From positions 4,836,001-4,900,000 of the forward strand of contig CM102289.1 in NCBI GenBank assembly GCA_046563655.1: DNA of 64,000 nucleotides. The letters are read 5' to 3'. Shown one piece after another: positions 34,965 to 57,468 of the stretch (the stretch's first letter is position 1; the number at the start of each line of letters is the position of its first letter). The position numbers and the translations under genes are program-made. A model generated the notes under the pieces. The model made no database searches and had not been told where the DNA came from. It was given only the letters and a program-made list of their open reading frames with translations. The DNA comes from Yuukianura sp. NJ FZ-2021. Its lineage: Eukaryota.

Positions 34965-35036
34965 TCCCATGTGGTCTAGTGGTTAGGATATTCGCCTCTC
35001 ACGTGAATGGCCGGGGTTCGATTCCCCGCATGGGAA
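34965..35036 (+). tRNA. tRNA-Glu (CTC)
   Basis: TCCCATG/CATGGGA acceptor stem, A-box TGGTCTAGTGG, anticodon loop CT-CTC-AC, T-loop GGTTCGATTCC; oligo-T Pol III terminator at 35041. Confidence 0.93.
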
Positions 35037-35356: not shown

Positions 35357-36209
35357 TTACCGGAATAATTAATAAGTTTTAAGTGACCCAAAATTCAATT
35401 AATAGTGATCCCATTCGCAAGTGTCACTGTTGCTTTCTTCAACCAACTGTGCCCACTGTAGTAATAACTTGGCATGTCAAAAAATATTCCAGTCATGGCA
35501 ATAATATTTGGGTTGGAAATTTTATTCGTAACAGCGAGGTTGGAAGTGTACATGACGAACTCAACAAGCTTCTCAAATAAAGAATTTGGATCTTTTTGAG
35601 CCAACGACGTTTTCTTTCTCAAACCGAGGTCATGGCGCTTTATAAATTTTTGTAGCCAACCACTGCTGGCCTGAAATTCGCTTGTTTGAAGCACTGCAGA
35701 GTAGACTTCCCTAGCTTTCACACGAATAGATTTGAAGGAGACACTGCTGGTTGGTGCGCTGATTTAAAATCCAATCGTAAACCATTTTGTCTGCTTTTTT
35801 AGAAAGTCGTTTTCTCGAGTCGAAAGCTAAAATTAGTTAAATTTTTACCGATTTTATCCTTTTGCTTCAGCCAACTGAAGACTTGTTTTCGGTGTACTCC
35901 GAAGTGAGCTGCGGTACCATCCGTGGTATTAGTAGAAGCGTACTGAACCACTTTTAACTTTAAAACTGAGATCAAACGATCGTCTTTTAGTTACACCATT
36001 TTTAAAACTTGTATTTAAGTGCTACATTTTGATTTGAGTCAAATTAGCAACATAGAAGTTAAACAGATGATGTCACTTTGCTCTAGGCTCTGCTTTAAAC
36101 TCAAGTTAGCTACCGCGCTTATATCGCAATTTGCCCCCGCTGAAACCGCGCTTGCATTAGAGAATGCGCTTATATTAGAATACGCGCTTGCATTAGAGCA
36201 TTTACGGTA
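35357..36209 (-). mobile_element. Degenerate pogo/Tigger-family DNA transposon (transposase pseudogene)
   Basis: Fragments KRRSFDLSFK..VVQYA...AAHFGVHRKQVFSWLKQ (HTH), FQASSGWLQKFIKRHDLGLRKKT (CENP-B HTH) and IIAM-TGIFFDMP (eroded first DDE block). Frameshifted. End TTTACGGTA with subterminal GCGCTT repeats. Confidence 0.8.
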
Positions 36210-45016: not shown

Positions 45017-46315
45017 GTTCGTAGGCGGAACATTCAGTTTTAAGATTGCTTTAATTAGCTAATTGCATAATCGAGGTGAATCTACACCTAATTGAAATAT
45101 TGGACACCTAATTCTCAAACGGCGTAACCACATTAGACCAAGTTACCTTCTCGGTTTCTATTAACTTGATTACATTAATTAGGTAATTAATTTAAACGCA
45201 AATTAAGTTACATTAGTACCGTATTTCCTTGCCTCTAATAAGCGCGTGGACTGTGGTTTTCCGAAAGAGTTTTTTCTCGTGAAAACTGAGGATCTCAGTT
45301 ACTGTATAAAGTGAATGTTTTAAAATATAGAATTAAAGTCTACTCTTGCAGGCCTTGAGAAGATTTGAAACTGCATACGCAAGTGCCAATAAAAAGCAGG
45401 GAAGTGCGTTAACTGAAAGTTACCACTCGTAAAGCAACATTACCATTTGTCTCATTTGCTAGGAATGGGCTAAATCTCAACAATTTTGTACTTTGAGGTT
45501 AACGAAAAGCAAAACCTTATTACTTTTTGTGAGGCACGTGTCAAGCAACGATATATTCCAAAGGTGGTTACACACTATGGAACCAATTTGAAACTGATTA
45601 CACATGATTTCGAAAAGTAACTTAAGCCTTGCTTTATCTTAATTGTTTTCGAAAATTACCAAAGTTAGAGAATTGCTCGAAAAAAATTTAGCGGAAGAAA
45701 CTGAATTCATATTGGGGCCGCCAAAAGCATGCGAAAAATAGATGAAAATGTTAGACGCCAGAGTCATTAATCGCACATTTACGGTAAAACAGAAAAAGTT
45801 GAGTGCTAATAAATTGGGGTTTTCAATCGTATTCTGAAATATAATTAGTGTGTATTTGAAAAAAAAATTAAACGAGCGAACCTAATAAAATTTAAATTTT
45901 AGCAGCGACACCGGTGCGGTCAAGCAAACGTTTTAACTTTTTAGGTGAAACTGTGCTTTCACTTTAAAGTACTGATGTTTGAAGTATCCGCTATTTAGCC
46001 ACACGTTTTACATTTTTAGCCCACATTTAGGCATATTTTAGGCAGCACAGAATGATTTTTTTTATTTTCAGAAGTTAAAAACTTTTCCAAAACTTAATTA
46101 GGCTGGATTGAGGGCGGGTAGTTGTCAGGTAGGAATTAAATTAAATGAAAAAGCGCTTGCGGTTTTTAGTAAATTAAATTAAAGGAACACAAAAAATATT
46201 TTAGTTGGAAAGTCTTGGCTGTATGAATATTCCAACACTACTTCCTGGAGCACAAATGATGCCGACATATTCCCAAATTTGAATTTCTCACTGCATTCTG
46301 TAGCATTTTGTTCAA

Positions 46316-49120
46316 ATGTCTCAATTTCTTTTAATTTTCTTGTTCATTTGCAACTGCGTTTCACAGGAAACGGATCTAGTAAGTGAATCGATTAACTTAA
46401 GCCCTTTTAAATTCTAATGTCTTAAATTCAATTTTAAGGTCAAAGGTCAACCATTTCATTTTTGATTTCAGGAAATGTTTCAGATGGAAGGAGTTGACTG
46501 GGAGGTTTTCGAAGGGATTCCGCCGTCAATTGACAAATCTAAATTGGAATCTTTTGAGCTAAGCAAAGTCAATTTGGACACCAACGTTTTACTAAGAGAA
46601 CTAGAGCAGTGTCCAAATTTGAAAACTCTGAAATTGACCAATTTAAAATGGAACGGGCAGTTTGAATCAAAAATTGAGCTTCCGAACCTCTCAAGCTACA
46701 CAGTCGTTCTGCCCGAAAGCAGACCATGCGCATTCAACACCATGACAGACTTCATGTCCATTCTCTTCTTCATTCCTGTCAAAGACATGTCACGTGGACG
46801 GGCCAAAACTTCCTGGATAAAGTCTTGGAAACTGGACAGTCGCTTTGAGTTGATTCACATCGCATGCGCCGTAGAGGAGTCAGACGCAGCAGGTTTCATG
46901 GACGAAAAACCGCGGGCACCAGAAACGCTTGTGCGCATCTCCACTGGACAGGATCTGATTGTCAACAATGTCCATTTTGATCTTCTGGAACATCTTCTAG
47001 GCTATGAAGATTTCATCAAGATTAGCTTCACCAGAAGCTATCTCAATGTCGCCCTTATTGAAAAGCACAAGCTGACTCTCCTTGAACTCACATTGGATAA
47101 CATCGACAACTTGAAATCAGCACGGGAGTTGCGCAATGTTCTCGTTGTTGCCCAGTACGTCAAGTACTTGGAAATGAGTCTCAGAATTCCCAACTTACGA
47201 TTTGACCTCTCACTGTTTGATTCTCGAAGTCTCAAAAATCTGCGCGTTTTTAATCAAAACAACGCTTTAGAAGTTTATGGAAACTCGACTTTTTATAAAT
47301 TGAGTCACATGGAACTCGGAAGTTCCGGGAAAGGAACTATGCTCAACACGGTTCTGGTTGCACCGAAACTCAAAAGCCTCAATTTGTACAACGCCTACTT
47401 TTCTCGCGTCGTGAATGCCAAGTTGGGAATGCGGAGTCTTAAAACGCTGGAAGCGTTTACATGTGGCGAAATGAGTATTGATATCAGTTCTCTACCATCA
47501 GAATACCTCAACCGAGTCGAATTCGAATCCTACTCAAGAGTATTCCAAAGTGAGCAGACATCGTACTTCCCAAAGGTCAAATCTGTCAAGATTGATGCCA
47601 GTTGTAACCTGGACCCGTCATTTGTCAACAACTTTTCAAAAACATTTCGCAACGTACGCAGTGTCATTTTCACGGGTTCAAGAACTACGAAAATCTCTCC
47701 TCAACTTTTCTTTCAAGTTTTGAATACTTCTGCCGTTTATTTCGCAAGTCGATTCAATCGACTTCACTTTCGAAGCCTTGACCCCTCTGAGGTCACTGAA
47801 GATGAAAAGAGGGCGGAACAACTTTTGACGGAATTTGGCGTACCGGAAGACTATTCTCCGCCTGGAATAATTTTGATTCGAGATTCCAAATATGCGCAAT
47901 GGAGTTGGTCTTATGCAAAAATTTCAACATGGGACAGGTTTTTGAATTTCTTTTACCCCATTTCCATTGGGGTAATATGCGCCTTTGGACTGGCGGGAAA
48001 TATTTTGACGACGATTATTTTGTTTAAAAAACCAATTGAGAGTTCAACAACGTGCATTCTACTTTGTCTCACACTCTGTGACTTTGTAATGATTTGTGCC
48101 ACAATTAATCTGATACCGTATTCACTTTCAAATGGATTTCGATACAGAAACAAAATACCGCATCACATTTTCCCGTCTGACCTCCTCTTTCGGCATTTGG
48201 AAGTTGTTCTTTTCTATCCCATAAGAAAAACGGGTAAAAAACAAGAAATTCTTTTAAAATTGGAGTGATTTCCAAAAGAAAATCTTTTTTCTAATTTGTA
48301 GCATACACGGGATCAGTTTACACCACGGTGTTGATAACTTATGAACGGTTCATTGCCGTTGCATTTCCATTGCACGCCAAACGGCTCGTGTCAATCAAGA
48401 GATCCAACATCTACTGTGCCATCATTCTCATATCGGCCGTGATTATCAACCTTCCGCGATGGTTTGAATCTTACAGTTTGTATGACACGGACAAGTCCAG
48501 AGGTCATTTTTCAGAAGTGAGTCTTCTGAGCTCACGTGACTATCGCAAGTACTATCACGGATGGGCGTGGACAATCATCATCTACATCTTACCGGTTGTC
48601 CTAATTGCCAGTTTCAATACAACAATTTACTTCAAGGTATTTAACAGCCGAAGCTGCGCAAATCTCACTTTAGAAAATGTTGGGATTTTCAATTTTTATT
48701 GGTTTATTTTAGGTGATGTTTGCGACAAGAGAGCGTCTTCGAATTAGTTCGAGCGGCGGGAGGGCGCCATCTACAGGCGTGGACATGAACCTGACTCGGA
48801 TGCTGATTTGCCTAGTGCTGGTTTTTGTGGTGCTGAACCTAGTGAGTGCAGCGATTGCACTGTACCACACTTTGTTTGAATTCCACATCGTGTCGTTTTA
48901 CTGGGACAAGGAAAAGGACATGTCAGAGATAGAAGTCGTCGCCTGTCTCCCTGTCCTCATCAACTCCGCTGTCAACTTCATAATCTACTGTGCAATGGGC
49001 CGGAAGTTCAGACAGGAGTTCATCAAACTGTTCCCAAAGAGGCTCGTCGCACTCTGCCGCAAAGCACCACACTCAACCAAGTCACCCAGACCTTCCGCCA
49101 TCTCTACTACACACTCCTAG
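46316..49120 (+). CDS. Signal peptide + LRR-like ectodomain + FMRFamide-receptor-like class A GPCR (about 855 aa)
   Basis: Exons 46316-46378, 46472-48233, 48302-48636 and 48713-49120. CPNLKTLKL / PKLKSLNL repeats, then FGLAGNILT, TGSVYTTVLITYERFIAVAFP, NLPRWFE and INSAVNFIIYCAMGRKFR. Confidence 0.85.
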
Positions 49121-49261
49121 GTCAACGCTATCAAATCATAGATTTAATGTAATTATCAACTTTACTCATGCGCAATTTGTCAAATTTGAGATGTGTGAAA
49201 ATAAAAATAGAACACAAATACTAACATGTCAATTTGAGATGTATCTCGCCTAATGCGCTTT

Positions 49262-49402
49262 TAAATATATAGTATATATTTAAAAAATATATATAGTATA
49301 TATTTAAAAAAAATACATAGTATATATTTAAAGAATATACATAGTATATATTAAAAAAAATATAGTATATATTTAAAAAAATATAGTATGTATTTAAAAA
49401 AA
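49262..49402. repeat. AT-rich minisatellite (about 23-bp unit TATATAGTATATATTTAAAAAAA, about 6 copies)
   Basis: Directly visible tandem array downstream of the GPCR. Confidence 0.85.
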
Positions 49403-51234: not shown

Positions 51235-51375
51235 GCTCGTCGCACTCTGTCGCAAAGCACCACACTCAACCAAATCACCCAGAACTTCCGCCATCTCTAC
51301 TACACACTCCTAGGTCAACGCAACCCAAATCATAGGCTTAATGTAATTATCACCTTTACTCATGCGCAATTTGGT
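51235..51375 (+). repeat. Duplicated 3' end and 3'UTR fragment of the GPCR gene
   Basis: Near-identical to about 49042-49180 (GCTCGTCGCACTCTG...CACACTCCTAGGTCAACGC...CATGCGCAATTT). Confidence 0.85.
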
Positions 51376-55552: not shown

Positions 55553-56277
55553 ATGTCAAAAAGGTGATTTGAAATTTTAATTTACTTCACCTAATTACTA
55601 ATCAATTAATTTTAGATTCAATTTAATTAACTGTACTGAATTTACTCTAAAGCGAGCAAGTACAACAGTTTCCTGTTCTGAAAAAACGAATTTACTTGAT
55701 TGGCACACAGTCGAGTGGAAAGACTACGTTGGCCAAAGAGCTCCAACGTCACTTTGGTCCTTCCGTTCCACTTTTGGAAGAAACAGCGCGAAAGGTTTTT
55801 CGAAAAAACGGGTATCAGGCACACGAAATTGAAAGTTCGAGATGCATCGAGATTCAGGGGAAAATTATCGAGGCTCAGTTTGAAGCCGAAAAGGAAGTTT
55901 GTGCCAAATACGGTCACCAAAAGCCTTTCATTTGCGACCGAACGGGAGTGGACGCGTTGGCCTACGTCAGGAAGTACTGCCCACTTCCAGATTTGGACAA
56001 ATGGAGCCAGCTTATAGACATGGCGGTGTGGCAGGCGTTACATAAGAGGTACAGAGACACTGACAACGCCGTCGTAGTATTGGTTCAGCCTGCGCGTCAA
56101 TTTTTGAAAAACGATGGAGTTCGACTGATGCCCAAAACGTTTGAAGAGTTGGAGGAACTTCATCAAGTTTTTGTGGAAATTTTGAACATGTTCGAAATTC
56201 CTTTTCAAGCAATTGAAAATGACTGTGTTGAATTGGAGGAACGAGTTCGAAAAGTGGTGAATTGGGCGAGCGAATAA
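55553..56277 (+). CDS. P-loop nucleotide kinase-like protein (AAA_28/NadR-type)
   Basis: Short first exon ATGTCAAAAAG|gt, then RIYLIGTQSSGKTTLAKEL, LLEETARKV, ICDRTGVDALAY and DGVR. Confidence 0.78.
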
Positions 56278-56456: not shown

Positions 56457-57468
56457 TTATAACTGATTTGCTGAAAATGCGAAATGCAATATAGCTAAGG
56501 CGACAATGAGTAAAATTGGCGCGCTTTTGAAATTTGGCGTTCCGCTATAAGTCGGGATATATTCTCTGTATGGTTTTACTCCAAGACATTCCTCAATACC
56601 GACAATTCGATATCCAGTGGTCGAAATGTAGTCTATGACCTGTCGTGTCAAATCGACAGAAATCGGAAGAGGATCATGCTGGAGGGAAATGTACCCTGGA
56701 GTGTCTTGTGGAACTGTTCCTTCCAGAGCGTTTTTGAAAAACTCGAGACTGTTGGTCACATCGAGTTTCCAATCTTCACTGTCAATGCACCAAAGAACAA
56801 CGTCATATCCAAGCTCGTCGTGGACAATGTAGCGGACATTGTCGTCCATTTCTCCGTTTGGAGGGCGAAAGAACACTGGAGCCACGCCTAAGATTTCACC
56901 CAGTTTGTCATATAAGAGGTCCAACTCTTCGTGAATTTTCTCTGAAGTGGCTCCGACGAGTGGATAATGTGACCAAGTATGAGAGGCGATTGTGTGACCC
57001 TGGAACAAAATGTTTTATACTTAGAAACCATGACCTTTGACCTTTGGTAGTAAAGAAAATTTCAACTAAAAGTTGTTTCTCACTTCGTCGTAGGCCCTCC
57101 GGACAACGGCTTGAGTGACTGGTTCGGTCAGAAATGGAGGGTAGTTGGCTCCATTGAGAAAGAACGTAGCAGAAACGTTTCTCTGTTTGAGCAAATCCAA
57201 CACCAGTTCAGTTTGACCTACGTTTACACCGTCATCTACAATCCCATCACAAAATTAGCAACATTAGCAAACAATAGCAAACGTTAGCAATCAATGTTCG
57301 CTTACCGAATGTCAAATGTATTGTTCCGTTTTGAATGCAGCGCCGGTAAGTCCAAGCGGTATCGTTTGGATTGGAACAGTATAAGTATGAATTCCTCTGT
57401 TGTGCGCAGACGCCATTGAAAACCATGAACACGAGAAACAGGCAAAGAACTATTGCTTTCGAAGCCAT
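56457..57468 (-). CDS. Secreted, probably GPI-anchored CE4/NodB polysaccharide (chitin) deacetylase
   Basis: Signal peptide; LTF|DDG, ATFF, GHTIASHTWSH, FFRPPNG, DSEDW, ISLQHD and EECLG; hydrophobic C-terminal tail; two introns. Confidence 0.9.

Follow-up and report, generated by a model that had tools for sequence, protein, structure and literature searches.

A predicted receptor gene in Yuukianura sp. that appears to join leucine-rich repeats to a class-A seven-transmembrane domain independently of the LGR receptors

Introduction

The locus described here raises the question of whether a large leucine-rich repeat (LRR) ectodomain has been joined to a rhodopsin-class (class-A) G-protein-coupled receptor (GPCR) more than once. 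To our knowledge, the LGRs, the receptors for glycoprotein hormones, relaxin and R-spondin, are the only class-A GPCRs described with an LRR ectodomain, and they are the textbook case of this architecture. From the letters of a 64,000-nucleotide (nt) stretch of the Yuukianura sp. NJ FZ-2021 genome (assembly GCA_046563655.1, contig CM102289.1, positions 4,836,001 to 4,900,000 of the forward strand; hereafter the window), it had been proposed that one gene encodes an LRR-like ectodomain fused to a seven-transmembrane (7TM) domain of the FMRFamide-receptor type (the original prediction). We followed up this proposal computationally and conclude, with good confidence, that the gene encodes a receptor with its N-terminus outside the cell, in which 16–17 turns of LRR, a hinge of about 55 amino acids (aa) and a class-A 7TM domain follow one another, and that this architecture most likely arose independently of the LGRs. 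Searches of article texts turned up no account of an Srw/FMRFamide receptor-like 7TM domain that bears an LRR ectodomain.

Results

The ectodomain and the first transmembrane helices are encoded in one exon

The gene, as predicted from the DNA, occupies positions 46316–49120 on the + strand (all positions are in window numbering, and residue numbers of P0001 refer to the exon-2 product). Its four exons encode 855 aa plus the stop codon in a joined coding sequence (CDS) of 2568 nt. The start ATG at 46316 follows an in-frame TAG located four codons upstream, and all three introns, of 93, 68 and 76 nt, begin with GT and end with AG and lie in phases 0, 1 and 0. Exon 2, with 1762 nt, is contained in a stop-free frame of 600 codons, the longest in the window; the second-longest frame among the 50 window open reading frames (ORFs) of at least 110 aa has 285 aa. 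The whole ectodomain, of about 465–484 aa, lies on exon 2 together with transmembrane helices TM1 and TM2 and the top of TM3, and the rest of the membrane part is split, with TM3–TM5 on exon 3 and TM6–TM7 on exon 4. On the 4146-nt metagenome contig L001 lies an orthologue that encodes 839 aa and is divided into four exons with matching phases. The features of the gene are listed below (ICL, intracellular loop; ECL, extracellular loop).

46316–46378, + strand: exon 1, ATG and 21-aa hydrophobic leader, ending in phase 0; exon 1 of L001, of 26 codons, is hydrophobic too and lies in the same place
46379–46471, + strand: intron 1, 93 nt, gtaagt...tttcag
46472–47761, + strand: start of exon 2, LRR solenoid, P0001 residues 1–430, about 16–17 strand/helix turns (AlphaFold2, Foldseek, VIA, family profile)
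47762–47926, + strand: exon 2, hinge from LRR to TM1, P0001 residues 431–485 (family alignment, AlphaFold2 secondary structure)
47927–48233, + strand: end of exon 2, TM1 (GN), ICL1, TM2 (LxxxD), ECL1 and top of TM3 (YPIRKT), ending in phase 1 (hydropathy, AlphaFold2, match to the TRH receptor)
48234–48301, + strand: intron 2, 68 nt, directly after YP(L/I)xKT(G), at a position conserved in the family
48302–48636, + strand: exon 3, TM3 core (ERF), ICL2, TM4, ECL2 and TM5 (Pro and Tyr) (Pfam 7tm_1; 64% identity to exon 3 of L001)
48637–48712, + strand: intron 3, 76 nt
48713–49120, + strand: exon 4, ICL3, TM6, ECL3, TM7 (NSAVNFIIY), basic C-terminal tail and TAG stop (70% identity to exon 4 of L001)

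The peptides quoted in the original prediction are all present (CPNLKTLKLTNL, SLKNLRV, PKLKSLNLYN, GNILT, ITYERFIAV, NLPRWFE and NSAVNFIIYC). Its single exon running from the repeats through TM1–TM3 needs one correction: the exon reaches no further than the top of TM3, and the TM3 core with ERF lies on exon 3. The proposed phase-0 junction between the leader exon and exon 2 held: the intron is of the GT-AG type and L001 has a leader exon in the same place. Exon 2 of L001 has no Met before codon 65 and is conserved up to its acceptor site, and an upstream leader exon is therefore required. Judged by eye, the 21-aa hydrophobic stretch is a putative signal peptide. Neither a second nor a decayed copy of the gene was found elsewhere in the 64-kb window.

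The same architecture occurs in other sequences

A HMMER scan of 1.84 billion representative sequences returned 16 matches, nine of which aligned to the ectodomain or the hinge. Eight of these nine ORFs run on into TM1–TM2, the exception being P0007, which ends before TM1. Word-index protein searches added a tenth relative, P0021, which reads through the intron position into TM3–TM5, and also returned P0004, the ORF of L001, and the LRR protein P0020. Besides the L001 orthologue, at least nine other database ORFs thus join an LRR-type ectodomain to TM1–TM2. The TM-bearing ORFs stop a few residues after YP(L/I)xKT(G), which is the site of the phase-1 intron in the window gene, and are therefore read as unspliced ORF calls. 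Since the matches are all such calls and none is named, the family is probably undescribed and from a poorly annotated animal lineage. Ectodomain identity was 53% to P0004 and 21–29% to more distant members. As far as these sequences reveal, the family is small and poorly sampled, and its whole ectodomain is encoded with TM1–TM2 in one exon.

Between the window gene and L001, identity was 49.8% in the ectodomain (466 codons), 68.1% in the 7TM domain (320 codons) and 19% in the leader. The proportion of synonymous differences (pS) was about 0.81, which is saturated, and that of non-synonymous differences (pN) was 0.32 in the ectodomain and 0.20 in the 7TM domain. A closer relative, about 96% identical, was present in sequencing run X4 (contig depth 4–5), where the comparison comprised 40 of 99 difference rows. 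The eight indel rows fell in intron 2 (six), intron 3 (one) and the 3' untranslated region (UTR; one), and none fell in the 2568-nt CDS. Among the 40 rows, 12 changes in codons 22–855 were synonymous and two non-synonymous, and the leader exon had two synonymous and six non-synonymous changes. These comparisons indicate a gene that is intact and subject to purifying selection. Compared with the 7TM domain, the ectodomain changes more rapidly, and its divergence to 21–29% identity in distant members suggests diversified ligand specificity.

These data bear on the possibility that the gene model is an artefact or a pseudogene, with an LRR frame that is not translated together with the 7TM domain. 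The relative P0007, which stops before TM1, speaks in its favour. However, a single exon without interruption encodes both the ectodomain and the first TM helices, in the orthologue and the close relative alike the ectodomain frame has stayed open under purifying selection, and eight of the nine ectodomain-bearing relatives continue into TM1–TM2. We therefore consider this explanation extremely improbable. The earlier argument from the single exon that the fusion does not result from gene merging is reinforced by the same intron positions in L001 and by the at least nine further ORFs.

Three further observations concern the leader and the relatives. A minority contig of sequencing run X1 (depth 67.7 of 206.6) shared 12 differences around the leader exon (46277–46372) with the X4 relative. 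The pattern at 46247–46448 suggests that the signal-peptide exon exists as two divergent haplotypes, in which six of the eight changed codons are non-synonymous. In P0019 (150 aa), which bears the TM1–TM2 signature of the family (RMRSSTS, LYPLNKIG), TM1 is preceded by no more than about 30 residues. This ORF represents either a relative without an LRR or a gene copy that encodes its ectodomain on another exon. P0009 and P0010 each contain two class-A 7TM units per predicted protein, with NSxxNFxxY as the common form of TM7, and probably each represent tandem genes that gene calling has fused.

The ectodomain is predicted to be an LRR solenoid without cysteine caps

AlphaFold2 modelled the exon-2 product as a solenoid, with a predicted local distance difference test score (pLDDT) of 74.5 and a predicted template-modelling score (pTM) of 0.69. 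Most blocks of the ectodomain reached a pLDDT of 85–94, and a low-confidence insert lay at P0001 residues 103–117 and 137–146. Foldseek searches with the ectodomain gave 17 matches at E ≤ 1e-3, headed by a Roco LRR, TLR13 and internalin A. In the VIA fold search, which is independent of Foldseek, LRR proteins occupied all 25 best rows (Z 12.7–15.9), including LIC11098 (Z 15.9, 349 aligned, root mean square deviation 4.2), LRRTM2, FBXL2 and SDS22. The paralogue P0013, which is only 21% identical, was likewise assigned an LRR fold by AlphaFold2 and fold search, with Z up to 17.0. Thus the solenoid anticipated from the repeats was recovered by AlphaFold2, Foldseek and VIA, and the predicted models fall within the LRR fold, defined as a right-handed solenoid of strand/turn/helix repeats of 20–30 residues.

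Sequence profiles led to the same fold. A profile of ten family members, compared with the sequences in the PDB, matched the LRR of PSKR1 (4.4e-9), FBXL2 (2e-5) and LRRC8D (1.3e-4), and more weakly ANP32, LRRC23, FBXL17 and COI1. The relative P0005 scored above the cut-off of the Pfam family LRR_At5g56370 (29.3 bits vs 27), and leads in the ESM Atlas, all below 0.9, were of LRR and FNIP type. The F-box-type repeats suggested in the original prediction are in line with the score of P0005 and with the profile matches to FBXL2, FBXL17 and COI1. Cysteine caps, whose absence had also been noted, were not seen: the mature ectodomain has only five Cys in about 484 residues, with no cluster at either flank, and no LRRNT or LRRCT match appeared in a Pfam scan of the window protein pieces. 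It carries four N-x-S/T sites. From these sequence features, the ectodomain may be described as a cap-less, irregular LRR domain of mixed F-box/At5g56370 and SDS22-like character.

An LRR ectodomain on a class-A 7TM domain could also be explained by descent from the LGRs, the gene being a very divergent member of that family (class A, delta group) that inherited its LRR-7TM junction. The overall architecture is indeed alike: a large LRR domain follows the (putative) signal peptide, and a hinge leads from it into a 7TM domain of the rhodopsin class. The ectodomains of LGR4 and LGR5 were among the fold matches of both the window protein (Z 13.5 and 12.0) and P0013 (Z 14.4 and 12.5), and LGR5 was matched by the family profile at E 0.057. 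However, these matches were confined to the LRR part, which was also the only part through which the profile reached LGR5, and the fold matches ranked below generic LRR proteins. Unlike the LGRs, the window receptor has neither a Cys-capped LRRNT nor a Cys-rich hinge, and its LRRs are irregular. In addition, many exons contribute to an LGR ectodomain, but a single one encodes the ectodomain and TM1–TM2 of the window receptor.

The 7TM domain is of class A and peptide-receptor-like

Seven hydrophobic segments were detected by hydropathy, and AlphaFold2 placed helices at P0001 residues 486–519 and 525–559, corresponding to TM1 and TM2. Basic residues cluster in the predicted inner loops and in the tail, as expected for a receptor whose N-terminus is extracellular. 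For Pfam and PDB comparisons, the 7TM domain was treated exon by exon, in three pieces. The exon-3 piece scored above the cut-off of Pfam 7tm_1 (PF00001; 37.7 bits vs 30.5, 2.1e-9) and also above those of Srx and Serpentine_r_xa; P0021 scored 42.6 on 7tm_1. In the ESM Atlas, exon 3 fell in with generic 7tm_1 clusters (best 0.94), with Mollusca as the commonest taxon. Srw (PF10324) was not matched by the window pieces at E ≤ 1. Its cut-off of 22.2 was passed by P0008 (26.5) and P0013 (25.0), two of the five LRR-bearing relatives scanned out of ten, and P0012, at 18.4, remained below it. Among the seven matches with TM1–TM2 only, Srw was the sole Pfam family above cut-off in three (P0014, P0017 and P0019) and the best-scoring family for P0009.

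Among the PDB matches listed, the nearest solved 7TM domains were those of TRHR (5e-8), CCR1 and NMUR2 (6.5e-4) for TM1–TM2, by family profile. TM3–TM5 came nearest to NK1R (1.6e-4), NTSR1 (1.9e-4) and V1aR (about 1e-4), and TM6–TM7 to CCR7 and the bradykinin and orexin receptors. These comparisons suggest that the 7TM domain is divergent, rhodopsin-class and peptide-receptor-like. The TRH, neuromedin-U (NMU), neurotensin, NK1 and chemokine receptors were present among the matches listed for the three pieces, which are weak, and no 7TM domain of an LGR, glycoprotein-hormone receptor or RXFP1/2 was among them, in keeping with the earlier remark that the 7TM domain is unlike that of LGRs. Together with the features of the ectodomain, this makes descent from the LGRs distinctly unlikely, and judging from sequence the LRR-GPCR architecture of the window gene seems to have arisen independently of the LGRs.

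By-eye alignment showed that N1.50, D2.50, R3.50, P5.50, Y5.58, N7.49 and Y7.53 are kept, the motifs being GN in TM1, LTLCD in TM2, ERF, ILPVV in TM5 and NFIIY in TM7. TM6 (MLICLVLVFVVLNLVSAAIALY) has no Pro, as had been noted before, and no Trp either, so that there is no CWxP. Phe replaces P7.50 of NPxxY, Val stands at 3.25 and ECL2 has no Cys. All of these departures are shared by L001, and their conservation there is compatible with an LRR membrane protein whose 7TM domain no longer couples to G proteins and whose role is adhesion-like, that of a co-receptor or arrestin-biased. On the other hand, the residues listed above are kept, the 7TM domain is better conserved than the ectodomain (68% vs 50%), and the ordinary short-N-terminus class-A GPCRs P0015 and P0010, matched through TM1–TM2, also have no TM7 Pro (NIVIY and NFLFY). 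A non-coupling protein is thus an unlikely reading, though a less remote one than a divergent LGR.

A conserved hinge precedes TM1

The hinge of about 55 aa comprises a helix, a conserved GVP motif, short strands and, immediately ahead of TM1, a nearly invariant Trp479. At the top of TM3, YP(L/I)xKT is conserved throughout the family. By analogy with the hinge of LGRs, the hinge and YP(L/I)xKT are candidate elements for coupling the ectodomain to the helix bundle.

Surroundings of the gene

The last 79 nt of the CDS and 59 nt of the 3' UTR (49042–49179) are duplicated 2.2 kb downstream at 51235–51373, with 93.5% identity over 139 nt; the rest of the gene was not found at 51235–51373. Contigs of both sequencing runs have loose ends at 49042/49044 and at 49179, as expected at the edge of a repeat. 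Just 3' of the gene, an AT-rich block at 49240–49400 consists of imperfect tandem units of about 20–25 nt, similar to tatagtatatatttaaaaaa.

The window has 38% GC and belongs to a compact animal genome. Pfam scans of 21 neighbouring ORFs found ordinary eukaryotic, housekeeping genes, and an Rfam scan of the window found one tRNA only. This tRNA gene (63 bits), at 34965–35036, adjoins an ORF with a Tc5-transposase helix-turn-helix domain at 35395–35763. Two single-frame ORFs stand tail to tail, an AAA_28 ATPase at 55651–56277 (+ strand, 9e-23) and a polysaccharide deacetylase at 56457–57014 (− strand, 1e-13), and their long uninterrupted frames are unusual in an otherwise intron-rich window.

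Discussion

Several points weigh against reading the gene as an LRR receptor of class A that is independent of the LGRs. The signal peptide is putative, being called by eye. The window protein itself scored below every Pfam LRR cut-off (best LRR_At5g56370, 14.1 bits vs 27). Hydrophobic autocorrelation found no significant repeat period, the observed maximum being reached by 180–552 of 1000 shuffles, so that profiles and folds, rather than LxxLxL strings alone, support the LRR call. The input alignments of both AlphaFold2 models were shallow, with 10 and 11 sequences. Matches to solved 7TM domains, made exon by exon, were all weak, the best of them with E 1e-4 to 1e-8. The subfamily placement, like the separation from the LGRs, is drawn from these matches rather than from a tree. 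P0019 indicates that this type of 7TM domain may also occur without an LRR in the same ORF. Finally, given the missing CWxP, Pro of NPxxY, Cys3.25 and ECL2 Cys, G-protein coupling is not to be assumed.

If the gene is an LRR receptor independent of the LGRs, it could work as follows. The short hydrophobic leader would carry the cap-less LRR solenoid across the membrane, where a ligand, probably a protein or another macromolecule, would bind the fast-evolving LRR. The hinge, with GVP and the near-invariant Trp, and YP(L/I)xKT at the top of TM3 would relay the change to the helix bundle, which may then signal inside the cell via R3.50 (ERF), Y5.58 and N7.49/Y7.53. By analogy, this mode of working is probably similar to that of the LGRs, in which the LRR captures the ligand and the hinge relays.

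The 7TM domain invites comparison with two groups of receptors. The TRH, neuromedin-U, neurotensin and NK1 receptors gave the best sequence matches among solved 7TM domains, all of them weak, and differ in having no LRR; they keep CWxP, NPxxY and the TM3-ECL2 disulfide. The Srw/FMRFamide receptor-like proteins (PF10324) resemble the family in that the Srw cut-off is passed by TM1–TM2 of P0008, P0013, P0009, P0014, P0017 and P0019, and in that TM7 of P0010 and of the window protein has the common form NSxxNFxxY. They differ in that their N-termini are short and the window protein is below the Srw cut-off. One article introduces Srw as a family of nematode chemoreceptors that resemble FMRFamide receptors (PMC4862687). 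In the text of an Srw-orthologue survey (PMC3963977), a term search found LRR, leucine and N-terminus to be absent. A passage of another article places the InterPro Srw signature on insect capa and pyrokinin receptors as well (PMC8660763), and for this reason we label the window receptor a peptide-receptor-like class-A receptor and not an FMRFamide receptor orthologue. The FMRFamide-receptor type given in the original prediction is therefore retained in part: the peptide-receptor-like class A stands, with Srw in two of five relatives, but for the window protein itself 7tm_1, Srx and Serpentine_r_xa are the only families whose cut-offs are passed. A single table row of the same article, hard to weigh on its own, lists a GPCR of an insect that bears LRR-superfamily and relaxin-receptor signatures and has FMRFaR as its best Drosophila match (PMC8660763).

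On the side of the ectodomain, Toll-like receptors and plant LRR receptor kinases use an extracellular LRR solenoid as a sensing module, a likeness by analogy only, and TLR and PSKR1/RGFR1 ectodomains were among the fold and profile matches. The difference lies in the output, which is a single-pass anchor with a TIR or kinase domain in those receptors and a 7TM domain in the window receptor. A tentative extension, which we hold to be possible but not probable, is that the genes form a lineage-restricted multigene family of LRR-GPCRs that evolved convergently, in which rapidly diverging LRR ectodomains of a cytoplasmic F-box type were recruited to the cell surface for pattern recognition or chemosensation with G-protein output. 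Its ligands would then be macromolecules of microbes, food or conspecifics, amounting to Toll-like sensing on a 7TM domain.

If the gene is what it appears to be, a second, independent union of an LRR ectodomain with a peptide-receptor-like 7TM domain would cleanly illustrate convergence in domain architecture. At the same time, it would provide a natural experiment on the coupling of a large ectodomain to a bundle of helices without CWxP, the Pro of NPxxY or the disulfide.

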